From: a virus
Taxonomy: Duplodnaviria; Heunggongvirae; Uroviricota; Caudoviricetes
IMG/VR virus record: IMGVR_UViG_2534681702_000002
DNA: 15,630 nt
Strand: one strand, 5' to 3'
Positions 1 through 15,154 of the stretch are shown one piece after another. Below the pieces are notes generated by a model. The model did no database searches. It worked only from the letters and a program-made list of their open reading frames with translations, and had not been told where the DNA came from. Positions within the stretch are counted from its first letter, which is position 1; every line of letters begins with the position of its first letter. A program made the position numbers and the translations under genes.

Positions 1-1164
1 TTACGCCTTCTTTATATCCTCCATAATTCCAGAGTGGGACATATTTGGGACATTATCACCAAAAATGTCGTCTATTTTCCTCGCATGCTCTGTCAAATGA
101 TTAGGCGCAAGGTGAGCATACCTACGAACCATTTCTATGGACTCCCATCCGCCCATTTCCTGAAGCACTGATAATGGGACGCCTGACTGAATCAGCCAGC
201 TTGCCCAGGTGTGTCTGAGGTCATGGAAACGGAAATCTTCAATTCCTGCACGACGACAAGCTGATAGCCATGATGTCTTGCTGTCGATGCGCATCTTCCT
301 GACCGCAGGCGTTGATGTTCCATCTGCTCGCTTAGCCGCCTTGGTATGTACAAACACCCATTTGTGATGCTTGCCTATTTGATCACGCAACACTTTACAG
401 GCGGTATCGTTCAGCGCCACACCAATGGCGCGGTTTGATTTGCTCTCTTCTGGATTCACCCAGGCAACTCGTCGCTGCATGTCGATTTGTTGCCATTCCA
501 GATTTATGATGTTCGACTTTCTCAGACCAGTTGCCAGCGCAAACTTGACGACAGATTTCAGTGGTTCGGGGCACTCATCAATAAGGCGTTTTGCTTCCTC
601 CTTTTCCAGCCATCTGACTCGCTTGTTTCTGACCGCTGGTATCTTGATGACAGGCGCTTTTTCCAGCCACTTCCAGTCGCGTTCTGCAGCACGGAGAATG
701 GCCTTTATCATGGCAAGATGCTTTGCCTTTGTCTGAGTTGATACTGGCTTTGGTTCATAAACAGGCGGTTCTTTACCTTTCCTGATGGCGGCCTGAACTT
801 TCTGTTTCCATATTTCTTTCGTCTTTCTGTTATGCATTCTGCTTACAGCAGAGTAAATCTTTGCCTCCGAGATATCTTTAAGCCTTATACCCTCAAAATG
901 TTCAAGCCAGAACTCAATCCGGCTTTTATCTGAATCGAGAGATTTTTTATCAGCTTTTTCCTCAAGCCATCTTAGGCAGGCCTCTTCAAAAGTGACATCA
1001 GGTAAATCCCCTAGCTTTTCTACTCGCCAGAGTTCTGCTTTTCGCTTGTCGTGCAACTCCTGAGCTTGCCGCTTGTCCTTTGTGCCAAGAGATTCCTTAA
1101 TTCGTTTCCCGCCCGGGAGCGAATACGAGGCATACCATATTTCATTTCTGCGGAAGAGTGACAT
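1..1164 (-). CDS. intD: Phage tyrosine integrase (387 aa), DLP12 IntD-like
   Basis: Full-length minus-strand ORF with ATG at 1164..1162 and GAGGAAAG Shine-Dalgarno upstream. C-terminal region carries the tyrosine-recombinase catalytic motifs (HDLRHT...RRY). The sequence matches my recollection of E. coli K-12 IntD. Confidence 0.88.
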
Positions 1165-1391
1165 TTTCTTTCCTCTGTTATGCCATCACCCGCGCTCACC
1201 TGGACAGTATGCAGCGGAGACTGAAGCGCCGCAATGCAGGCTTGCCGTGTTGTGAGGTAAGGAGATTTTGGCTTGGTTGGATCTTTACGTGTTGCCTGTA
1301 GGCGGCCTGTTCGTATCCAGTTGGTGGCGGTTGGTCTGGATATCTTAAGAAACTGACAGGCCTCATCGAGTGTGAGGCTGTATGATTCCAT
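1020..1391 (-). CDS. xis: Excisionase-like DNA-binding protein (AlpA/Xis family), 123 aa from the ATG at 1391
   Basis: Minus-strand ORF directly upstream of int. ATG at 1391..1389 preceded by GAGGTAACC. N-terminus [31 protein letters not shown] is a typical Xis/AlpA helix-turn-helix. The 3' end overlaps int by 145 nt, which is unusually long for xis, so the C-terminal part may not be native. Confidence 0.6.
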
Positions 1392-1641
1392 GGTTACCTC
1401 TGCTTTTTGAACGCATGTCACGTAACTTCTTAATGTGTTCTGCCGTTTCGATCTCTTCTGCTATCCGATCTGCATCAGCTTTATTCACAGGTTCAAAGTC
1501 ATGATTAAAGCGGAACATGCTGGCGATACATGTTCTGCCTTTTCGGATGTAGTGAACTTTGTTGTGGGTAGAACGCAGGATTTTGCAGGGAGTGCCGTGG
1601 TGGTCGACGTACCAGGTGTTAGGCAAAATGATTCTGAACAT
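1363..1641 (-). CDS. Hypothetical small phage protein (92 aa)
   Basis: Minus-strand ORF with ATG at 1641..1639 and a GAGGTG Shine-Dalgarno 7 nt upstream. Its last ~9 codons overlap the xis start. No recognisable motif. Confidence 0.4.
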   Translation of the reverse strand: MFRIILPNTWYVDHHGTPCKILRSTHNKVHYIRKGRTCIASMFRFNHDFEPVNKADADRIAEEIETAEHIKKLRDMRSKSRGNHGIIQPHTR

Positions 1642-1654
1642 TTTTACACCTCAG

Positions 1655-1714
1655 TTGGAAGGTATGGCGAAAACACAGGTTATGTGGCTGAAAGAGGGGA
1701 TTATTAAGGCGTGA
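1655..1714 (+). pseudogene. 3' remnant (~19 codons) of the gene normally upstream of rusA (ybcO-like), lacking a start codon
   Basis: The frame ending at TGA 1712..1714, overlapping the rusA GTG, translates ...[19 protein letters not shown]. This resembles the C-terminus of the small protein I recall preceding rusA in K-12 (ybcO). The similarity is lost upstream of about 1655. Confidence 0.3.
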
Positions 1715-2073
1715 ATACCTACAGCATCACATTACCCTGGCCTCCGAGCAATAATCGCTATTACCGCCATAATCGCGGGCGCACGCACGTCAGCGCAGAG
1801 GGGCAGGCATACCGCGATAACGTCGCCAGAATCATTAAAAACGCAATGCTGGATATCGGCCTGGCTATCCCTGTGAAAATCCGCATTGAGTGCCACATGC
1901 CGGATCGCCGTCGCCGTGACCTGGATAATCTGCAAAAAGCCGCTTTTGACGCACTCACTAAAGCAGGTTTCTGGCTGGATGATGCTCAGGTCGTTGATTA
2001 CCGCGTTGTGAAGATGCCTGTTACCAAAGGTGGGAGGCTGGAACTGACCATCACCGAAATGGGGAATGAATGA
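1711..2073 (+). CDS. rusA: Holliday-junction resolvase RusA (120 aa), GTG start
   Basis: ORF translation [37 protein letters not shown]... matches recalled RusA over its full length. GTG start at 1711 with AGAGGGG upstream. Confidence 0.92.
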
Positions 2074-2210
2074 TGTTTGAGTTTAATATGGCAGAACTTC
2101 TTCGCCACCGCTGGATGCGCCTGCGCTTATATCGTTTCCCCAGTTCTGTTTTGACCGATTACCGAATACTGAGGAATTACGCCAAAACCCTGACAGGAGC
2201 AGGAGTATGA
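2070..2210 (+). CDS. ylcG: Small protein YlcG-like (46 aa)
   Basis: Not in the ORF track because it is under 60 aa. ATGATG at 2070 overlaps the rusA stop. Translation [46 protein letters not shown] matches recalled YlcG in sequence and in position between rusA and Q. Confidence 0.6.
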
Positions 2211-2295
2211 AGTCAGAGATAACAATCAACTAATACTGTTTTATTGATTTTTGCTTGTAATTGGCGTTCTGGTCTGATTTTTGTGGAGTAAGTTG

Positions 2296-2679
2296 ATGCG
2301 TGATATTCAGATGGTTCTTGAGCGTTGGGGAGCGTGGGCGGCTAATAATCATGAAGATGTGACCTGGTCGTCCATTGCCGCCGGTTTTAAGGGATTAATT
2401 ACTTCAAAAGTAAAATCTCGCCCGCAATGTTGTGACGATGACGCGATGATCATTTGCGGGTGCATGGCCCGTCTGAAAAAGAACAACAGCGATTTGCACG
2501 ATTTATTAGTAGATTATTATGTAGTCGGTATGACATTCATGTCACTGGCAGGTAAGCATTGCTGCTCTGATGGTTATATCGGGAAAAGGTTACAGAAGGC
2601 TGAGGGCATAATTGAAGGGATGTTAATGGCATTAGATATCCGGTTAGAGATGGATATCGTTGTTAATAACTCTAATTAA
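2296..2679 (+). CDS. quuD: Late-gene antiterminator Q (127 aa), phage 82/21-type
   Basis: ATG at 2296 with GGAG upstream (the track ORF begins earlier at a TTG). Cysteine-rich region ([24 protein letters not shown]) typical of Q-family proteins. Lies between rusA/ylcG and the lysis genes as in lambdoid phages. Confidence 0.8.
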
Positions 2680-2695
2680 TATGCCAATTGTTTAC

Positions 2696-2731
2696 TAAAA
2701 ATTATTAAAAATGGGGCGTTGAGACGCCCCC
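2696..2731 (-). terminator. Putative rho-independent terminator for minus-strand (nmpC) transcripts
   Basis: Perfect inverted repeat GGGGCG-ttgaga-CGCCCC at 2713..2730, followed on the minus strand by AUUUUUAAUAAUUUUU. Confidence 0.5.
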
Positions 2732-2820
2732 AAAAATAAAGGGTAATATATAACAGAAGGTTTATATAGTTAGAAGCAAGGTTGTGCTTCTAAAGGAAGT
2801 GGCTTGAGGGAGCCACTTAT

Positions 2821-2858
2821 ATGTTGGGGAGGCAAAGCCTCCCGCAACATATCTTTTT
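2821..2858 (+). terminator. Putative rho-independent terminator downstream of Q (tR'-like)
   Basis: Inverted repeat ATGTTGGGGAGGC-aaa-GCCTCCCGCAACAT at 2821..2850, followed by a TCTTTTT tract on the plus strand. Two further short hairpins lie at 2771..2792 and 2797..2820. Confidence 0.5.
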
Positions 2859-2868
2859 CGTAATCAGA

Positions 2869-3951
2869 TTAGAACTGATACACCAGACCTACAGCGACGA
2901 TGTCGTCGGTATCAATACCAGCTGTTTTGGTAAACTTACTATCGTCAATTAAGTTGATTTTGTAATCAACAAAAGTGGACATGTTTTTATTAAAGTAGTA
3001 AGTAGCACCGACATCGACATACTTGACTAAGTCTCGGTCACCATGAACACCAAGGTCTTTACCTTTTGACTGAAGGTAAGCAACAGATGGTCGCAGACCG
3101 AAGTCAAACTGATATTGTGCTACTGCTTCAAAGTTTTGTGCTTTGTTTGCAATATGGTTATTACCAAAAACGGTCATATTCTGAGTTTCAGAATATGTGG
3201 TAGCCAGATAGATATTGTTCGCATCATATTTCAGGCCTGCAGCCCATACTTCCGCATTTTTGCCGGAGGCATTGAATTTGCTCTTACCATAGGCGACCTG
3301 ACCGTCAGTGCGATCTGATTTAGCATAGGTTGCACCCACGCCGAATCCTTCATACTCATAAGTAGTGGAGAAACCGAAACCATCACCATTGGCTTCAGTT
3401 ACGTCAGTGCGGTCATTTTTACCCTGATACTGAGCAGCAAAGTTCAGGCCATCGACCAGACCAAAGAAGTCGTTGTTACGATAGGTTGCAACACCAGTGG
3501 TGCGACCAGTCATGAACACATCTGTTTGGGTCCAGGTATCGCCACCGAATTCTGGCAGAACGTCAGTCCACGCACCGATGTCGTATGCTACACCGTAGTT
3601 ACGGCCGTAATCGATTGAGCCGTAGTCACCGAATTTCAGGCCTGCAAATGCAAGACGGGTTTTGTCTTTGGAGGAACCTTGAGATTCAGCGCGGTTGCCT
3701 TTGAATTCATATTCCCACTGACCGAAACCAGTCAGTTGATCGTTGATTTGGGTTTCACCTTTGAAGCCAAGACGGGCATAAGTAGTATCACCATCATCTG
3801 CATCGTTAGAGGAAAAGTAGTGCTTGGCATTAACTTTCCCGTACAGATCCAGCTTGTTACTGTCTTTATTATAAATTTCAGCTGCCTGAGCAGACATCGT
3901 CATCAGTACTGATGCAGCTACAGCAGAAATTGCCACTGTTAATTTTTTCAT
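2869..3951 (-). CDS. nmpC: Outer-membrane porin, OmpC/Lc family (NmpC-like), 360 aa, apparently intact
   Basis: Signal peptide [23 protein letters not shown] followed by [16 protein letters not shown] and a C-terminal ...AVGLVYQF beta-barrel terminus. This is the classic general-porin signature and matches recalled NmpC/Lc. Confidence 0.85.
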
Positions 3952-4539
3952 CGTGAGCCCTTTTTTTTGAACTATTATTAAAAAATGATGTCACTGCGCG
4001 ATAAATATTCATCTAATCAATGTGATTATTTCAAGATGTAAGTTTTAGTTTCTCATTTAATTTGTGAAGTAGATCTCTATTTTTATCTGAACTTTTTCTA
4101 TCGAAACCTATTTATGGCTCTTATTTGAACAAAAATAAACCTATTAGCTAATTTATATTAATGGCTGTTATTTATGGGGGGGCTATAATTCGGTGGTTTA
4201 ATTTAAATCAACTAAAAATAACGCCGGAAATTATTTATTGGTTATTTGTTGAGGTTTTCTTATATATTTGTGGTGGTGTTTTGAACACTCGGTAGCATTC
4301 TCATAAATATCATTCAGTGGTTTACGTACGTAAAAAATTGGTTATGCTGTTAAGAGTGGTTACTTCGTCACACAGCTTAAACCCGCCGTCGAGCTGGTTT
4401 TTCCATTTTTTGAGTCTCGATATTAGCTGATAACTCAATACCTGAGTTATTCACTGACTCCGAGTCTGTTACGTTTCTGCTTTTTTGCGATACGTTGTAT
4501 TCCCTCAATTTACACCCGCTTTGTCTGCGAGGTGGGGTT

Positions 4540-4755
4540 ATGAAATCCATGGATAAGTTAACAACGGGTGTCGCCTATGGCACCTCAGCAGGTAGTGCCG
4601 GTTACTGGTTTTTACAGCTGCTCGATAAAGTCACGCCCTCACAGTGGGCAGCAATAGGTGTGCTGGGTAGCCTGGTATTTGGCCTGCTGACGTACCTGAC
4701 AAACCTTTATTTCAAGATTAAAGAAGATAAGCGCAAGGCTGCGAGAGGTGAATAA
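4540..4755 (+). CDS. essD: Class II holin (pinholin), S21-like, 71 aa
   Basis: [71 protein letters not shown] matches recalled phage 21 S / EssD. Real start is the ATG at 4540, inside the longer track ORF. Confidence 0.85.
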
Positions 4756-5252
4756 TGCCTCCATAATTACGAAAAGCCGTTGCTGCTGCTATTGGTGGCG
4801 GAGCAATTGCTATAGCATCAGTGTTAATCACTGGCCCAAGTGGTAACGATGGTCTGGAAGGTGTCAGCTACATACCATACAAAGATATTGTTGGTGTATG
4901 GACTGTATGTCACGGGCATACAGGAAAAGACATCATGCTCGGTAAAACGTATACCAAAGCAGAATGCAAAGCCCTCCTGAATAAAGACCTTGCCACGGTC
5001 GCCAGACAAATTAACCCGTACATAAAAGTTGATATACCGGAAACAACGCGCGGCGCTCTTTACTCGTTCGTTTACAACGTGGGCGCTGGCAATTTCAGAA
5101 CATCGACGCTTCTTCGCAAAATAAACCAGGGCGATATCAAAGGCGCATGTGATCAGCTACGTCGCTGGACATATGCTGGCGGTAAGCAATGGAAAGGTCT
5201 CATGACTCGTCGTGAGATTGAGCGTGAAATCTGTTTGTGGGGTCAGCAATGA
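4755..5252 (+). pseudogene. rrrD: SAR-endolysin (R21/RrrD-type lysozyme) with an in-frame TAA at codon 4; only a GTG at 4821 could restart, giving a 143-aa product without the N-terminal SAR domain
   Basis: The ATG at 4755..4757 overlaps the holin stop (TAATG coupling) and is followed by CCT CCA TAA. The same frame continues as [32 protein letters not shown]... (SAR hydrophobic segment) into the lysozyme domain. Recalled RrrD starts [12 protein letters not shown]..., so codon 4 TCA has become TAA. Confidence 0.6.
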
Positions 5253-5710
5253 ACAGAGTAACCGCGATTATCTCCGCTCTGGTTATCTGCATCATCGTCT
5301 GCCTGTCATGGGCTGTTAATCATTACCGTGATAACGCCATTACCTACAAAGCCCAGCGCGACAAAAATGCCAGAGAACTGAAGCTGGCGAACGCGGCAAT
5401 TACTGACATGCAGATGCGCCAGCGTGATGTTGCTGCACTGGATGAAAAATACACGAAGGAGTTAGCTAATGCGAAAGCTGAAAATGATGCTCTGCGTGAT
5501 GATGTTGCCGCTGGTCGTCGTCGGTTGCACATCAAAGCAGTCTGTCAGTCAGTGCGTGAAGCCACCACCGCCTCCGGCGTGGATAATGCAGCCTCCCCCC
5601 GACTGGCAGACACCGCTGAACGGGATTATTTCACCCTCAGAGAGAGGCTGATCACTATGCAAAAACAACTGGAAGGAACCCAGAAGTATATTAATGAGCA
5701 GTGCAGATAG
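5249..5710 (+). CDS. rzpD: Spanin inner-membrane subunit Rz (153 aa)
   Basis: ATG at 5249 overlaps the rrrD stop. N-terminal transmembrane segment followed by coiled-coil sequence. Matches recalled RzpD. Confidence 0.85.
5469..5651 (+). CDS. rzoD: Spanin outer-membrane lipoprotein Rz1 (60 aa), embedded in rz in the +1 frame
   Basis: Lipoprotein signal with lipobox LVVVGC, followed by a proline-rich mature region ([15 protein letters not shown]). Entirely nested within rzpD. Confidence 0.8.
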
Positions 5711-5741
5711 AGCTGCCCATATCGATGGGCAACTCATGCAA

Positions 5742-6035
5742 TTATTGTGAGCAATACACACGCGCTTCCAGCGGAGTATAAATGCCTAAAGTAATAAAAC
5801 CGAGCAATCCATTTACGAATGTTTGCTGGGTTTCTGTTTTAACAACATTTTCTGCGCCGCCACAAATTTTGGCTGCATCAACAGTTTTCTCCTGTCCAAT
5901 TCCCGAAACGAAGAAGTGATGGGTGATGGTTTCCTTTGGTGTTACTGCTGTCGGTTTGTTTCCAACAGTAAACGTCTGTTGAGCACATCCTGTAATAAGC
6001 ATTGCCAGAGCGGCAGAAAACAACATTTTTTTCAT
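5742..6035 (-). CDS. borD: Bor lipoprotein (serum-resistance family), 97 aa
   Basis: Real start is MKKMLFSAALAMLITGC..., inside the longer track ORF. Lipobox LITGC. Matches recalled lambda Bor / BorD. Confidence 0.85.
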   Translation of the reverse strand: MKKMLFSAALAMLITGCAQQTFTVGNKPTAVTPKETITHHFFVSGIGQEKTVDAAKICGGAENVVKTETQQTFVNGLLGFITLGIYTPLEARVYCSQ

Positions 6036-6394
6036 CTTATTATCCTGCATTGTTAAAAACGGCAGAATCCTATGTGACAACAATTAAACGATAGTTAAAT
6101 GGATTGATGAAAATTAAAACTATATAGGTGGATGCTCAGCCTATTGGAGGAGGGGGGCACTCAGAATCCTGTGGAATGAAATAAACCGCTCTTTCTGTCC
6201 ATTACCCTTTTAGCTGCGCTGTATCGTCGCCGTATTCCCGCATTAACCATGACCGTAGCCCGACGGGGAATTCCTTCTGCGTGAGTGTGCGGGAATAATC
6301 AAAAACGATGCACACCGGGTTTTACTGTGCTGACAGACGCAGGGTTACCCTCATAGTCGCTTTTCCGGTGCGATGGTGGAAGAAACCGGGATGT

Positions 6395-6589
6395 TTATTC
6401 ATCATCACTCTGGATTGATGTATATGCTCTCTTTTCTGACGTTAGTCTCCGACGGCAGGCTTCAATGACCCAGGCTGAGAAATTCCCAGACCCTTTTTGC
6501 TCAAGAGCGATGTTAATTTGTTCAATCATTTGGTTAGGAAAGCGGATGTTGCGGGTTGTTGTTCTGCGGGTTCTGTTCTTCGTTGACAT
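6395..6589 (-). CDS. ylcI: Small basic protein (64 aa), YlcI-like (DUF3950-type); possible ribbon-helix-helix DNA binder
   Basis: Arginine-rich N-terminus MSTKNRTRRTTTRNIRFPNQMIEQINIALEQKGSGNFSAWVIEACRRRL. Sits immediately upstream of cos/nohD, where I recall ylcI in K-12. The assignment is from memory. Confidence 0.45.
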   Translation of the reverse strand: MSTKNRTRRTTTRNIRFPNQMIEQINIALEQKGSGNFSAWVIEACRRRLTSEKRAYTSIQSDDE

Positions 6590-6749
6590 GAGGTTGCCCC
6601 GTATTCAGTGTCGCTGATTTGTATTGTCTGAAGTTGTTTTTACGTTAAGTTGATGCAGATCAATTAATACGATACCTGCGTCATAATTGATTATTTGACG
6701 TGGTTTGATGGCGTAGATGCACGTTGTGACATGTAGATGATAATTATTA

Positions 6750-6977
6750 TCATTTTGCGGGTCCTTTCCGGCGATCCGACAGGTTACGGGGCGGCGACCT
6801 CGCGGGTTTTCGCTATTTATGAAAATTTTCCGGTTTAAGGCATTTCCGTTCTTCTTCGTCGTAACTTAATGTTTTTATTTAAAATACCCCCTGAAAAGAA
6901 AGGAAACGACAGGTGCTGAAAACGAGCTTTTGGGCCTCTGTCGTTTCCTTTCTCTGTTTTTGGCCGTGGAATGAACA
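6750..6977. other. Lambda-type cos site (cosQ-cosN-cosB) with lambda right-end-like flank
   Basis: GGGCGGCGACCT, the lambda 12-nt cohesive-end sequence, lies at 6789..6800. It is preceded by ...CCGACAGGTTACG (lambda right terminus) and followed by CGCGGGTTTTCGCTATTTATGAAAATTTTCCGGTTTAAGG... (lambda left-end cosB region), running up to the Nu1 start. Recognition is against the lambda sequence as I remember it. Confidence 0.8.
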
Positions 6978-7523
6978 ATGGAAGTCAACAAAAAGCAGCT
7001 GGCTGACATTTTCGGTGCGAGTATCCGTACCATTCAGAACTGGCAGGAACAGGGAATGCCCGTTCTGCGAGGCGGTGGCAAGGGTAATGAGGTGCTTTAT
7101 GACTCTGCCGCCGTTATAAGATGGTATGCCGAAAGGGATGCTGAAATTGAGAACGAAAAGCTGCGCCGGGAAGTTGAAGAACTGCGGCAGGCCAGCGAGA
7201 CAGATCTCCAGCCAGGGACTATTGAGTACGAACGCCATCGACTTACGCGTGCGCAGGCCGACGCACAGGAGCTGAAAAATGCCAGAGACTCCGCTGAAGT
7301 GGTGGAAACCGCATTCTGTACTTTCGTGCTGTCGCGGATCGCAGGTGAAATTGCCAGTATTCTCGACGGGATCCCCCTGTCGGTGCAGCGGCGTTTTCCG
7401 GAACTGGAAAACCGACATGTTGATTTCCTGAAACGGGATATCATCAAAGCCATGAACAAAGCAGCCGCGCTGGATGAACTGATACCGGGGTTGCTGAGTG
7501 AATATATCGAACAGTCAGGTTAA
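6978..7523 (+). CDS. nohD: Terminase small subunit Nu1 (181 aa)
   Basis: MEVNKKQLADIFGASIRTIQNWQEQGMPVLRGGGKGNEVLYDSAAVIRWYAERD... is near-identical to recalled lambda Nu1 across its length. Confidence 0.92.
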   Translation: MEVNKKQLADIFGASIRTIQNWQEQGMPVLRGGGKGNEVLYDSAAVIRWYAERDAEIENEKLRREVEELRQASETDLQPGTIEYERHRLTRAQADAQELKNARDSAEVVETAFCTFVLSRIAGEIASILDGIPLSVQRRFPELENRHVDFLKRDIIKAMNKAAALDELIPGLLSEYIEQSG

Positions 7524-7713
7524 CAGGCTGCGGCATTTTGTCCGCGCCGGGCTTCGCTCACTGTTCAGGCCGGAGCCACAGACCGCCGTTGAATGGGCGG
7601 ATGCTAATTACTATCTCCCGAAAGAATCCGCATACCAGGAAGGGCGCTGGGAAACACTGCCCTTTCAGCGGGCCATCATGAATGCGATGGGCAGCGACTA
7701 TAACTGTTATTAA
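7498..7713 (+). pseudogene. Terminase large subunit (gpA) N-terminal fragment, about 66 native codons then divergence and a stop
   Basis: MNISNSQVNRLRHFVRAGLRSLFRPEPQTAVEWADANYYLPKESAYQEGRWETLPFQRAIMNAMGSDY matches the recalled lambda gpA N-terminus. Downstream of about 7700 the sequence is unrelated (NCY*). The start overlaps the Nu1 end as in lambda. Confidence 0.85.
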
Positions 7714-8626
7714 TGAAAATCCGACAGCACAAGGATATCAGGCAATTGCTGTAAACACGAATGATGCTTACACCTGCCCGGCAGGTTCTTATACGACGAT
7801 ATCGTGTCTGACGAAAAGTGATAATTCCCGGTGTCGTGCAAGGTTCGGAAAAATGTCTGATAATGGTGCGTTTGTTTTTCATTCAGATGCAGTTCTGGAT
7901 CCTGTTACGGGAAATGTTGTTCATGGAAATAATGTGACGGTGACGGCAGAAAGAGTCGGTGAATGGTGGTTGTTTACCGCCACTCTTTTTGCAGATGCGG
8001 AAATGATAATCAGCTCAAGATTTGAAATCCTGGCGATGCCTGGAATCAGTATTATCCCCAATGGCTCTACGTTAGATATTGCGATGCCTCAGGCGGAGAT
8101 TGGGTCGTACAGGACGTCATTTATCATTACTGAAGGGGCTCCTGGCACTCGCTCCAGCGACATGGTGACAATACCTGTAAGAAACAATATTCACCGATTA
8201 CCATTCAGTGCTCTTGTTGAAGTTAATAAAAACTGGGATATCCCTCCCAGCAAATCACCATTAATCTTTAATGTTAAAGATTATCAGGAAAATGGTCTGT
8301 TCACGCATGGATTCCGTGGTAATAATTTCTCTGATGCCGGTTCTCCTTTTATTTCTATGGGAGGGTGTAATAAATATGTGGCAACAACCCAGAGGAAAAT
8401 CATTTCAGGCTTCCGTTGTGGCGCTGATGGAGATGTTCAGGCCGTATGTAATGGTGAATTATCTGTTGCGGCAAAAACAACATGGACTTCAATTGTTCCA
8501 CGGGCAGTATTGCGAATTGGAGGGCAGGGCACTAATGGGGAGTATCATCTTTTTGGTCATATCCGTAATCTGCGTATCTGGCATAAAGAATTAACTGATG
8601 CGCAAATGGGGGAGAGTATTAAATGA
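7682..8626 (+). CDS. Chimeric ORF (314 aa): C-terminal fragment of a phage fibre / receptor-binding-type protein with a ConA/LamG-like C-terminus; its first 7 codons are terminase-A sequence read out of frame
   Basis: C-terminal ...NGEYHLFGHIRNLRIWHKELTDAQMGESIK resembles the end of LamG/concanavalin-like lectin domains. The ATG at 7682 has no convincing Shine-Dalgarno and sits inside the gpA remnant. Domain call is pattern recognition only. Confidence 0.4.
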   Translation: MRWAATITVINENPTAQGYQAIAVNTNDAYTCPAGSYTTISCLTKSDNSRCRARFGKMSDNGAFVFHSDAVLDPVTGNVVHGNNVTVTAERVGEWWLFTATLFADAEMIISSRFEILAMPGISIIPNGSTLDIAMPQAEIGSYRTSFIITEGAPGTRSSDMVTIPVRNNIHRLPFSALVEVNKNWDIPPSKSPLIFNVKDYQENGLFTHGFRGNNFSDAGSPFISMGGCNKYVATTQRKIISGFRCGADGDVQAVCNGELSVAAKTTWTSIVPRAVLRIGGQGTNGEYHLFGHIRNLRIWHKELTDAQMGESIK

Positions 8627-8904
8627 AAGATTTAACACTCAAATTTGCAGACAGGGCCGACTTTTCGGCCTTTATGGAGAGTATTGGCTATTATGATGAC
8701 GAGTCGATGCAGGATGATATTCTTATTGACGTGATAGGTAACGTGTACAAAGAAACCGGAGAACTGACTGAAGATGGCGAACCGGTATGTGTTAAGGAAG
8801 ACGGATATTTTGTAAACGTGCGCATCATTAATGATGTAAAAAAATCGTCAATATTCGATAAATACGCGGTTGTTGTTGAGCATCAACTTCGTGGCTGGAT
8901 GTGA
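8623..8904 (+). CDS. Hypothetical acidic protein (93 aa)
   Basis: ATG overlaps the stop of the preceding ORF (AAATGA). No recognisable motif. Separated from the next ORF, in the same frame, by one TGA plus 9 nt. Confidence 0.45.
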   Translation: MKDLTLKFADRADFSAFMESIGYYDDESMQDDILIDVIGNVYKETGELTEDGEPVCVKEDGYFVNVRIINDVKKSSIFDKYAVVVEHQLRGWM

Positions 8905-8913
8905 GGGAGACAA

Positions 8914-9618
8914 ATGGCTACATCGACAGTAATTCCAGGAGATATCACCACGCTAAAGGGAGATGTCAGTAAAACTAAGGAAGATATTTCCTCAATTAAC
9001 GGAAAAGTATCAACGCTTCAGACTGATATGACCAGTGCAAAGCAGGATATCAGCACCAGATACACAAAAACTGAAGTTGATAATAAGCTGAAAAACAAAC
9101 TGGAAGTGAACGATCTGGAAAGCGGTCGTTATGGTGGAGATTTTTACCCGTTGACTGGCCGTGAAGCGTTTTATATGTGGGGATTGGGCACGACTACAGC
9201 GGCGGCAAACCTTTATCTTAATCCTGACCCTGCAATTTCGTCTGTACTGCGGTCAACATCGTCTATTCGCTATAAACATTCAGTAGAGACGATAGATTCA
9301 GAGCACGCCGATCTCATTTTCAGGATGCGCCCTGTGTGGTACAGGTCGCAATACGAAAATGACAGGCGTGACTGGGGATTCTACGGATTGATTGCCGAGG
9401 AAGTAGGAGAAATTGCCCCTCAGTTTGTACACTGGCGACCAGCTAACGAAGATGATGCTCCTGAAGCTATTTCCAGCAATGGCCTTGTTGCCGAAGGTGT
9501 AATGTACGAACGTCTGGTTGTTCCACTGATTCACCATATCCAGAAGCTGACTGAAAGAGTTGATGAACTTGAGTCAGAATTAAAGTTGTTATCCGTTTCC
9601 CGAAGCGATATCGGATAA
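8914..9618 (+). CDS. Tail-fibre-like protein (234 aa): N-terminal coiled coil plus C-terminal intramolecular-chaperone (peptidase S74-type) domain
   Basis: GAGGGAG Shine-Dalgarno before the ATG. C-terminal segment ...RMRPVWYRSQ...GFYGLIAEEVGEIAPQFVHW...GVMYERLVVPLIHHIQKLTERVDELESELK fits the conserved pattern of fibre/tailspike auto-cleaving chaperone domains. N-terminal 70 residues are heptad-like (KGDVSKTKEDISSINGKVSTLQTDMTSAKQDIS). Confidence 0.6.
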   Translation: MATSTVIPGDITTLKGDVSKTKEDISSINGKVSTLQTDMTSAKQDISTRYTKTEVDNKLKNKLEVNDLESGRYGGDFYPLTGREAFYMWGLGTTTAAANLYLNPDPAISSVLRSTSSIRYKHSVETIDSEHADLIFRMRPVWYRSQYENDRRDWGFYGLIAEEVGEIAPQFVHWRPANEDDAPEAISSNGLVAEGVMYERLVVPLIHHIQKLTERVDELESELKLLSVSRSDIG

Positions 9619-10596: not shown

Positions 10597-11339
10597 ATGG
10601 ATTATGTTTGCTCCGTAGTTTTCATCTGTCAATCATTTGATTTAATTATAAACAGGAGAGTTATCTCGTTCAAAAAAAATTCATTGTTTATTGTAAGCGA
10701 CAAAATTAGAAGGGAGTTACCAGTATGCCCCTCTAAACTAAGAATTGTTGATATAGATAAGAAAACATGTTTATCCTTTTTTATCGACGTGAATAATGAG
10801 CTGCCTGGCAAATTTACTCTTGATAAGAATGGCTATATTGCTGAAGAGGAACCTCCATTATCGCTTGTTTTTTCTCTGTTTGAAGGGATTAAAATAGCAG
10901 ACTCACACTCCCTTTGGTTAAAAGAAAGACTATGTATATCCTTACTTGCCATGTTCAAAAAACGCGAAAGTGTAAATTCATTTATACTAACAAATATAAA
11001 TACATTCACCTGTAAAATTACTGGAATAATCAGTTTTAATATTGAGCGGCAATGGCATTTAAAAGATATTGCGGAATTGATTTATACGAGTGAAAGTTTA
11101 ATAAAAAAAGATTAAGGGATGAAGGAACGTCATTTACTGAAATATTGAGAGATACTAGGATGAGGTATGCAAAAAAACTCATAACTTCAAACTCTTATTC
11201 TATCAATGTCGTAGCCCAGAAATGTGGCTATAACAGTACTTCATATTTCATATGTGCATTTAAAGATTATTATGGTGTCACGCCATCTCATTATTTTGAG
11301 AAAATAATCGGCGTCACAGATGGAATAAACAGGTAATGA
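10597..11339 (+). pseudogene. appY: AraC-family regulator AppY, disrupted by a 1-bp frameshift at an A7 run (11103..11109) and by an IS1 insertion 12 nt before its native stop
   Basis: The 172-aa ORF (10597..11115) and the 63-aa ORF (11145..11336) are in different frames, yet together form a continuous AraC-type C-terminal helix-turn-helix domain (...[19 protein letters not shown] / [25 protein letters not shown]...[18 protein letters not shown]). The native last codons (AAA ACA ATT GAC TGA) lie at 12882..12896, beyond the IS1 pair. Confidence 0.85.
11323..11331. repeat. 9-bp target-site duplication GAATAAACA, left copy, of the outer IS1
   Basis: Identical 9-mer immediately flanks both ends of the outer IS1 (11323..11331 and 12876..12884). 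Confidence 0.85.
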
Positions 11340-11378
11340 CTCCAACTTATTGATAGTGTTTTAGGTAGTGACTCCAAC

Positions 11379-11882
11379 TTACTGATAGTGTTTTATGTTC
11401 AGATAATGCCCGATGACCTTGTCATGCAGCTCCACCGATTTTGAGAACGACAGTGACTTCCGTCCCAGCCTTGCCAGATGTTGTCTCAGATTCAGATTAT
11501 GTCGCTCAATGCGCTGAGTGTAACGCTTGCTGATAACGTGCAGCTTTCCCTTCAGGCGTGATTCATACAGCGGCCAGCCATCCGTCATCCATACCACGAC
11601 CTCAAAGGCCGACAGCAGGCTCAGAAGACGCGCCAGTGTGGCCAGAGTGCGTTCACCGAAAACGTGCGCCACAACTGTCCTCCGTATCCTGTCATACGCG
11701 TAAAACAGCCAGCGCTGACGTGATTTAGCACCGACGTAGCCCCACTGTTCGTCCATTTCCGCGCAGACAATCACATCACTGCCCGGTTGTATGCGCGAGG
11801 TTACCGACTGCGGCCTGAGTTTTTTAAGTGACGTAAAACCGTGTTGAGGCCAACGCCCATAATGCGGGCAGTTGCCCGGCAT
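11379..11882 (-). CDS. insB: IS1 InsB reading frame (167 aa), expressed as the InsAB' transposase by -1 frameshifting; inner copy
   Basis: Translation matches IS1 InsB. Overlaps insA in the -1 frame. Identical at protein level to the copy at 14634..15137. Confidence 0.9.
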
Positions 11883-12076
11883 CCAACGCCATTCATGGCC
11901 ATATCAATGATTTTCTGGTGCGTACCGGGTTGAGAAGCGGTGTAAGTGAACTGCAGTTGCCATGTTTTACGGCAGTGAGAGCAGAGATAGCGCTGATGTC
12001 CGGCGGTGCTTTTGCCGTTACGCACCACCCCGTCAGTAGCTGAACAGGAGGGACAGCTGATAGAAACAGAAGCCAC
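11801..12076 (-). CDS. insA: IS1 InsA (91 aa), inner copy
   Basis: [43 protein letters not shown]... is the zinc-finger plus HTH InsA. The A6C frameshift motif (TTAAAAAAC) lies at its 3' end. Confidence 0.9.
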
Positions 12077-12104
12077 TGGAGCACCTCAAAAACACCATCA
12101 TACA

Positions 12105-12626
12105 CTAAATCAGTAAGTTGGCAGCATCACCGTGTTTTATGTTCAGATAATGCCCGATGACTTTGTCATGCAGCTCCACCGATTTTGAGAACGACAGCGA
12201 CTTCCGTCCCAGCCGTGCCAGGTGCTGCCTCAGATTCAGGTTATGCCGCTCAATTCGCTGCGTATATCGCTTGCTGATTGCGTGCAGCTTTCCCTTCAGG
12301 CGGGATTCATACAGCGGCCAGCCATCCGTCATCCATATCACCACGTCAAAGGGTGACAGCAGGCTCATAAGACGCCCCAGCGTCGCCATAGTGCGTTCAC
12401 CGAATACGTGCGCAACAACCGTCTTCCGGAGCCTGTCATACGCGTAAAACAGCCAGCGCTGGCGCGATTTAGCCCCGACGTATCCCCACTGTTCGTCCAT
12501 TTCCGCGCAGACGATGACGTCACTGCCCGGCTGTATGCGCGAGGTTACCGACTGCGGCCTGAGTTTTTTAAATGGCGGAAAATCGTGTTGAGGCCAACGC
12601 CCATAATGCGGGCGGTTGCCCGGCAT
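12105..12626 (-). CDS. insB: IS1 InsB reading frame, outer copy; C-terminus altered (…[11 protein letters not shown]) because the ORF runs into the inserted inner IS1
   Basis: About 90% identical to the inner InsB. The last two native codons (YQ) are replaced by read-through into the inner IS1 end, extending the ORF to 173 aa. Confidence 0.8.
12132..12139. repeat. 8-bp target-site duplication GTGTTTTA, right copy, of the inner IS1 (left copy at 11356..11363)
   Basis: Direct 8-bp repeat, itself part of the outer IS1 sequence, flanking the inner 768-bp element. Confidence 0.85.
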
Positions 12627-12820
12627 CCAACGCCATTCATGGCCATATCAATGATTTTCTGGTGCGTACCGGGTTGAGAAGCGGTGTAAGTGAACTGCAG
12701 TTGCCATGTTTTACGGCAGTGAGAGCAGAGATAGCGCTGATGTCCGGCAGTGCTTTTGCCGTTACGCACCACCCCGTCAGTAGCTGAACAGGAGGGACAG
12801 CTGATAGAAACAGAAGCCAC
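12545..12820 (-). CDS. insA: IS1 InsA (91 aa), outer copy
   Basis: InsA-like. Differs from the inner copy at two residues (…GLNTIFRHL versus …GLNTVLRHL). Confidence 0.9.
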
Positions 12821-12875
12821 TGGAGCACCTCAAAAACACCATCATACACTAAATCAGTAAGTTGGCAGCATCACC

Positions 12876-14100: not shown

Positions 14101-14439
14101 AAAAGTTCTCCATTCAATCGTTTTAATGATTGAATATGTATTTTTTATATCTAACTTAATGAGTCAATTACATATTGCTCCACTGTTTATATTTTGTTTA
14201 GTATTGAATGATTATCACAATGCGCTATCTGTTTTTGGTTTAATTATCTGTTATTGTTTCATATTGCGGTTTTACTGTGTGGTTTTTTTATGCTTTTGTG
14301 GTGCTTTTATCTATTTAAGTGCCATGCCTTTAGAGGCATATAAGCGAAAATAGCATGAGGTTTATCCTCAATTACTATGTTTTTGGTGATGCTGCCAACT
14401 TACTGATTTAGTGTATGATGGTGTTTTTGAGGTGCTCCA

Positions 14440-14715
14440 GTGGCTTCTGTTTCTATCAGCTGTCCCTCCTGTTCAGCTACTGACGGGGTGGTGCGTAACG
14501 GCAAAAGCACCGCCGGACATCAGCGCTATCTCTGCTCTCACTGCCGTAAAACATGGCAACTGCAGTTCACTTACACCGCTTCTCAACCCGGTACGCACCA
14601 GAAAATCATTGATATGGCCATGAATGGCGTTGGATGCCGGGCAACTGCCCGCATTATGGGCGTTGGCCTCAACACGGTTTTACGTCACTTAAAAAACTCA
14701 GGCCGCAGTCGGTAA
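14440..14715 (+). CDS. insA: IS1 InsA (91 aa), third copy
   Basis: Protein identical to InsA of the inner IS1. Confidence 0.9.
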
Positions 14716-15137
14716 CCTCGCGCATACAACCGGGCAGTGATGTGATTGTCTGCGCGGAAATGGACGAACAGTGGGGCTACGTCGGTGCTAAATCACGTCA
14801 GCGCTGGCTGTTTTACGCGTATGACAGGATACGGAGGACAGTTGTGGCGCACGTTTTCGGTGAACGCACTCTGGCCACACTGGCGCGTCTTCTGAGCCTG
14901 CTGTCGGCCTTTGAGGTCGTGGTATGGATGACGGATGGCTGGCCGCTGTATGAATCACGCCTGAAGGGAAAGCTGCACGTTATCAGCAAGCGTTACACTC
15001 AGCGCATTGAGCGACATAATCTGAATCTGAGACAACATCTGGCAAGGCTGGGACGGAAGTCACTGTCGTTCTCAAAATCGGTGGAGCTGCATGACAAGGT
15101 CATCGGGCATTATCTGAACATAAAACACTATCAGTAA
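14634..15137 (+). CDS. insB: IS1 InsB reading frame (167 aa), third copy
   Basis: Protein identical to InsB of the inner IS1. A6C frameshift motif TTAAAAAACTC at about 14690. Confidence 0.9.
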
Positions 15138-15154
15138 GTTGGAGTCACTACCCG

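Follow-up and report, generated by a model that had tools for sequence, protein, structure and literature searches.

Can a packaging site that has lost its large terminase and all head genes still be put to use by another phage, and why would such a site be found intact? The question is raised by a stretch of 15,630 nucleotides (IMG/VR record IMGVR_UViG_2534681702_000002; hereafter, the window) in which a cos site close to that of phage lambda and a complete gene for the terminase small subunit, Nu1, precede a destroyed gene A. An earlier note on this DNA had suggested that the element cannot package itself, but that its cos could allow a superinfecting lambdoid phage supplying terminase to package the adjacent DNA.

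Exact alignment with the lambda genome (NC_001416) shows that window positions 6378–7700, on the plus strand, are collinear with lambda across its joined ends, namely lambda 48092–48502 followed by 1–913; a window coordinate corresponds to the lambda base pair plus 6788. Left of cosN, the segment 6378–6788 differs from lambda 48092–48502 by 17 substitutions in 411 bp (95.9% identity); right of it, 6789–7700 differs from lambda 1–913 by 14 substitutions and one 1-bp gap (98.4% identity). As judged from the alignment, a 1.3-kb match at 96–98% identity is far above chance, and the window evidently contains the ends of lambda in joined form, as in a prophage or a circle, and then Nu1 and the beginning of A. 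Fifteen substitutions and a 1-bp deletion fall into 6600–6977, the span singled out in the earlier note; the deleted base is lambda G138, whose loss is shared with phage DE3. The run from 6773 to 6841 (lambda 48487 to bp 53) contains no change and no indel, and it spans the whole of cosN and I2.

The subsites of cos were assigned using the definitions of Murialdo & Feiss 2022 (PMC9026076) and Sippy et al. 2016 (PMC4856287). CosN, defined as 16 bp (PMC9026076), is located at 6787–6802 on the plus strand. It comprises the 12-nt cohesive-end sequence GGGCGGCGACCT at 6789–6800, which occurs only once in the window (plus strand), and two flanking base pairs on each side, and is identical to that of lambda. 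The packaging-termination element cosQ (GGGTCCT), which we take to be lambda 48473–48479 (presumably as in Wieczorek & Feiss 2001), is found unchanged at 6759–6765 on the plus strand. It is part of the block CGGGTCCTTTCCGG, whose conservation in lambda, N15 and phi80 served to place it; the substitutions closest to it are at 6757 and 6772, and these, together with the one at 6745, correspond to the phi80 allele. The I2 spacer between cosN and cosB (6806–6838, plus strand; lambda bp 18–50) is also identical to lambda, and the spacing between cosN and R3 is therefore preserved. Both the spacer, the extent and essentiality of which were described by Sippy et al. 2016 (PMC4856287), and the exact cosN–R3 spacing are required for a lambda-type cos (PMC4856287, PMC9026076).

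R3, the critical TerS site of cosB, is located at 6838–6853 on the plus strand (lambda bp 50–65) and reads AGGCATTTCCGTTCTT. It contains one change, G54A at 6842, the only notable change in the whole cos. R3 is considered to be the most critical of the R sites; its contact segment, determined by NMR, comprises bp 55–63, and bp 56, 58 and 59 have been defined genetically as functional (PMC9026076). All of bp 55–65, including the contact segment and the three functional base pairs, are unchanged relative to lambda, and G54A is situated within the R3 box, one base pair outside the contact segment. The CG dinucleotide affected (6841–6842 in the window; 16698–16699 in the DLP12 locus of E. coli K-12) is altered in both elements, by G54A here and by C53T in K-12 DLP12; bp 53 and bp 54 are both conserved in R1, R2 and R3 of lambda, and the two changes are different transitions.

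The I1 region with the IHF bending site, located between R3 and R2 (6854–6896, plus strand), has two substitutions, A73G (6861) and T102C (6890). The predicted IHF site, being the best match to the consensus core (bp 79–91; 6867–6879, bottom strand), is identical to lambda, and both substitutions are outside this core, in the flanks of the probable footprint. R2 (6897–6912, minus strand; lambda bp 109–124) reads CTGTCGTTTCCTTTCT on the bottom strand and R1 (6938–6953, plus strand; lambda bp 151–166) reads CTGTCGTTTCCTTTCT on the top strand, both being identical to lambda. Owing to the absence of lambda G138, R1 is 1 bp nearer to R2 than in lambda, as it is in phage DE3; the inter-box changes comprise G134A, the loss of G138, T145G and T176G. 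The exact alignment, which the earlier note had proposed as a check on cosN and the R sites of cosB, revealed nothing disruptive in cosN, cosQ, I2 or the contact bases of the R sites. At the level of sequence, a complete cos of lambda specificity is shown to have been retained; its elements follow one another in the lambda order, cosQ–cosN–I2–R3–I1–R2–R1, and cosN, cosQ, I2, R2 and R1 are those of lambda.

The gene that follows cos (6978–7523, plus strand) is annotated as nohD in RefSeq relatives and encodes an intact terminase small subunit of 181 aa, homologous to Nu1 (TerS); its profile match to PHROG 57 (terminase small subunit) has an E-value of 5.5e-77 and extends over residues 1–181. 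There are 8 nucleotide differences from lambda, five synonymous and three non-synonymous, and the three resulting replacements (K48R, A75T and L132I) are conservative. None of them falls in the recognition helix (residues 17–24) or the wing (31–39), which are identical to those of lambda Nu1. The full Nu1 gene reported earlier is present, including the C-terminal end that binds TerL, with three changes from the lambda protein.

Gene A, encoding the terminase large subunit, persists only as a remnant at 7498–7713 on the plus strand: 68 lambda-identical codons out of 641 (full-length gpA, encoded by lambda 711–2636, has 641 aa), followed by NCY and a stop. Homology to lambda stops at 7700, and at the junction 7700/7701 codon 68 of gpA is followed directly by internal sequence of a tail gene. 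This gene (7682–8626, plus strand), which encodes a tail spike or fibre protein truncated at its 5′ end, covers only the C-terminal 320 positions (474–793) of the 793-position profile phrog_1419. According to the RefSeq annotation and the profile matches, intact genes for the terminase large subunit, portal and capsid are absent after nohD, and remnants of tail-fibre genes come next. A single deletion is thus shown to have fused A to the inner part of a tail gene, with loss of the remainder of A and of all head and tail-shaft genes. The analysis bears out the anatomy given in the earlier note, with a near-lambda cos, an intact Nu1, a truncated gpA and no head genes, and self-packaging of the element is precluded, since gpA ends after 68 codons and no head genes are located downstream. 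Among 5426 complete E. coli genomes, 31 have this junction; it is lineage-specific and can be used as a strain marker.

What the earlier note did not recognise is that the locus is already known and studied, and that the majority of E. coli carry it (PMC3945230). Over its full length, the window is 99.9–100% identical at the DNA level to E. coli chromosomes. In the annotated relative E2386, the gene order is argU, intD, rusA, ylcG, quuD, porin, essD, rrrD, rzpD, iss/bor, ylcI and nohD, followed by a partial ORF, genes of the tail-fibre type, appY, IS1 and ompT. This order agrees with the annotation of DLP12 in K-12 MG1655, argU itself being just outside the window. The locus is the cos–nohD–A′ remnant of the cryptic lambdoid prophage DLP12. 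Cos and nohD of DLP12 are annotated in K-12, so the locus is a rediscovery of a very common feature: of the 5426 complete E. coli genomes, 3996 contain a lambda-type cos, and the median is two copies per genome. As a discovery it is minor, recombination of DLP12 with lambda having been studied as well.

The DLP12 prophage of K-12 (qsr′), with its cos–nohD–aaaD, is the same chromosomal element, sharing the gene order from intD to ompT, a lambda-type cos and a NohD of 181 aa. The two versions differ by 24 substitutions over 1323 bp and in the endpoint of the deletion: in K-12, gpA is joined to tfaD at about codon 103 (about lambda bp 1020), whereas in the window it is joined to the tail-protein gene at codon 68. 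A search with the K-12 DLP12 junction yielded 368 genomes at a coverage of at least 80%, the best of the matches listed being in two pieces over about 830 bp. The Qin prophage of K-12, found at a different chromosomal location, has a cos that differs from that of the window at one position in 232 bp and shares A54. Residues 1–176 of its NohA are identical to NohD of the window, and in both prophages cos and noh are situated beside tail-fibre genes. In Qin, however, the endpoint falls within the 3′-terminal part of Nu1 (window-equivalent 7506, Nu1 codon about 176), resulting in a NohA of 189 aa with a foreign C-terminus and no remnant of A. The endpoint regions compared were window-equivalent 7506–7806, positions 3799–4368 of the K-12 Qin locus and positions 17355–17663 of the K-12 DLP12 locus; all three endpoints are joined to genes of the tail-fibre type. 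Judging by these endpoints, the DLP12 forms of the window and of K-12 are not derivable from one another by a single deletion.

That this cos allele can work is supported indirectly by its occurrence in phages with complete packaging genes. The 232 bp from cosQ to R1 (6759–6990) are 100% identical to those of Escherichia phage PhiR42_1 (PV340562), and the identity at the DNA level extends over 966 bp, from 6735 to 7700. PhiR42_1 has Nu1, A, W, B, Nu3, D and E at full length, and its Nu1 has the same amino-acid sequence as NohD; the viability of this phage is taken from its GenBank record (‘complete genome’, host ECOR13), and a literature search for a paper describing the PhiR phages (PV3405xx), PhiR42_1 included, found none. 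An exact 29-mer across the A54 allele of R3 is present in 76 IMG/VR viral contigs. Forty contigs with this allele extend at least 2.7 kb downstream; 21 of them encode a full-length gpA, with an alignment that extends at least to residue 630, and in 14 of these 21 cos does not differ from that of the window. The cos and Nu1 allele can be regarded as live because it is identical in a complete phage, and the cos with A54 is probably a widespread natural form of a functional lambda-type cos and not a decayed copy. The strain thus apparently carries the cos/Nu1 allele of a live phage, and lambdoid phages grown on it can acquire DLP12 sequence. The mosaic pattern of identity along the element suggests that the cryptic prophage has recently exchanged alleles with active lambdoid phages.

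Compared with lambda and PhiR42_1, the window is devoid of a functional gpA, of head and tail-shaft genes and of annotated replication genes, and its cos is a lone chromosomal site, with no second cos in range in the close relative. E. coli PICIs such as EcCICFT073, as well as cosmids, exploit a lambda-like cosQ and cosN with the TerL and capsids of a helper (PMC6739421, PMC9026076). PICIs, however, excise, replicate and redirect TerS by means of Rpp and a distinct cosB, whereas the element in the window keeps the cosB and TerS of a phage. A PICI-like hitcher was rejected on the basis of the annotation: there is no replication module and no rpp, and cosB is of the phage type.

Published work on K-12 is in line with an active exchange at this locus. 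According to De Paepe et al. 2014 (PMC3945230), K-12 DLP12 and lambda have in common 3353 bp at 98% identity, a stretch that includes R, Rz, cos, nu1 and A. Recombinants of lambda with DLP12 were about 100-fold commoner than those with Rac or Qin; 10 of 19 lambda–DLP12 junctions adjoined cos, which the authors attributed to double-strand breaks at cos, and recombinants with the nu1 of DLP12 were viable and active (PMC3945230). It was from this distribution of junctions that De Paepe et al. deduced cleavage of the DLP12 cos in vivo (PMC3945230). Feiss et al. 2015 chose E. coli C over K-12 hosts because it is free of cosN-lambda in defective prophage material (PMC4669245). A full-text literature search for cleavage of the DLP12 cos or for helper-dependent packaging from it returned De Paepe 2014 only.

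What a helper could do with the site depends on its surroundings. In the close relative 99-3165 (NZ_CP029981), whose chromosome stands in for the genome of the window, no second co-oriented cosQ–cosN was detected within 50 kb downstream, and the matches to cosN in these 50 kb, with two mismatches, are at the level of chance. The region comprises appY, ompT, envY, nfrAB, an Rhs/VgrG locus, cus and ent/fep. In RefSeq, the identical element is annotated with no replication module, primase or rpp. Packaging of the lambda type is completed only at a second cosQ–cosN about 38–51 kb downstream, and where the chromosome offers one cos only, the products are ‘doc’ particles, which have one cohesive end and are defective. 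The E. coli chromosome has reportedly been cleaved by lambda terminase.

By the established pathway of lambda packaging, a terminase of lambda specificity acting in trans would be expected to proceed as follows. TerS, either that of the phage or NohD, would bind R3 and R2 over the IHF bend, and TerL would nick cosN. The cosQ side would then become an exposed, recombinogenic double-strand end, while the terminase would remain on the cosB end, able to dock on a prohead. DNA would then be drawn in rightwards, beginning with nohD and the tail remnants and continuing into appY and ompT; the outcome would be, at best, defective particles with one cohesive end. Helper terminase should cut the DLP12 cos in the window, and a terminase of lambda specificity would probably break the chromosome there; the expected consequences are a chromosomal break, a recombination hotspot, exchange of alleles with phages and, at most, one-ended packaging. 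The cos–nohD module may have been exchanged repeatedly with infecting lambdoid phages through homologous recombination, serving as a reservoir of cos and nu1 alleles, and would look young for that reason. As to the packaging of adjacent DNA by a superinfecting phage, as suggested earlier, initiation and cleavage are plausible, the subsites being intact, but efficient transduction is not expected: in the absence of a downstream cos packaging cannot terminate properly, and the 50 kb searched in the relative hold no second cos. Taken together, the locus is, with high probability, a DLP12 remnant with a functional-looking cos that would undergo cleavage and allele exchange, efficient transduction from it being unexpected.

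Three other readings were weighed against this one. That the retained cos is the origin of an effective mobilisation of the adjacent chromosome by helper phages (appY, ompT, envY and beyond), resembling lateral transduction, appears unlikely. It would agree with the integrity of cosN, I2 and cosB, which point towards appY and ompT, and with the lambda ‘doc’ particles, which are said to demonstrate that in-situ packaging from one chromosomal cos is possible. Nevertheless, a second cos is missing within the packaging range in the close relative, and without an annotated replication module neither packageable concatemers nor amplification of the substrate is possible; moreover, lateral transduction is not carried out by cos phages, according to a 2026 paper (PMC12829572). 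The opposite reading, in which cos is a decayed relic and G54A, together with the changes in I1 and in the R2–R1 interval, prevents terminase from binding productively, has a barely appreciable probability. G54 is invariant among the three R boxes of lambda, R3 matters most among the R sites (PMC9026076) and K-12 DLP12 has a different change, C53T, in the same dinucleotide; yet bp 54 is outside the contact segment and is not one of bp 56, 58 and 59, and the variants near cosQ match phi80. Decay through G54A was rejected because the allele is found in complete phages and prophages: the identical 232-bp cos is present in PhiR42_1 and in the 14 IMG/VR contigs with full-length gpA.

The third reading is selection for a function that serves the host or the element. 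Under such selection the cos–noh module would be a decoy by which incoming terminase is titrated or misdirected, with abortive infection via cleavage of the chromosome, or NohD would have a cellular role; only a very slight probability can be assigned to this. The wide occurrence of lambda-type cos in E. coli genomes fits it, as do the three non-synonymous and five synonymous differences between nohD and lambda and the fact that three deletion endpoints in cryptic prophages are situated within about 300 bp to the right of Nu1. However, the endpoint pattern is post hoc and comprises three cases, the substitutions could have arisen in functional phages, and repeated gene conversion from infecting phages (PMC3945230) accounts for the conservation with no benefit to the host; a nohD phenotype was not found in the literature search. 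The clustering of the endpoints, with the same reservation as to three cases viewed post hoc, would fit a scenario in which TerL is disfavoured by selection in a prophage that has kept cos but does not excise. The more specific proposition, that cos and the small terminase are actively retained while the large terminase is selectively lost, for the benefit of the host or as a landing pad for rescue, is very unlikely. If it were true, the module would be a terminase decoy or a means of abortive infection by chromosome cleavage, or else a landing pad for rescue into incoming phages.

Several further differences from K-12 DLP12 and from related genomes were observed in the window. The lysis region (2944–6089) is only 91% identical to that of K-12 DLP12, as against 100% identity to PhiR42_1 over 6735–7700. 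The porin gene of DLP12 (nmpC; ompC in relatives), located at 2869–3951 on the minus strand, is an intact ORF of 360 aa in the window, whereas in K-12 it is interrupted by IS5. The intD–rusA segment (1259–1656) is much shorter than in K-12 DLP12 (locus 2074–9317), with emrE, ybcK, ybcL, ybcM, ybcN, ninE and ybcO missing between intD and rusA; the DLP12 variant of the window is more deleted on its left side than that of K-12. In appY (10597–11338), a homopolymer at about 11102/11103 has one A fewer than in E2386, and the resulting frameshift would end AppY after residue 172 of 246; this is either a real pseudogene or a sequencing error. Three copies of IS1 were found, at 11364–12131, 12132–12875 and 14385–15152. 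The first two are adjacent to each other between appY and ompT, the second being about 94% identical to the first, and the third is beyond ompT; related genomes have one IS1 only between appY and ompT.
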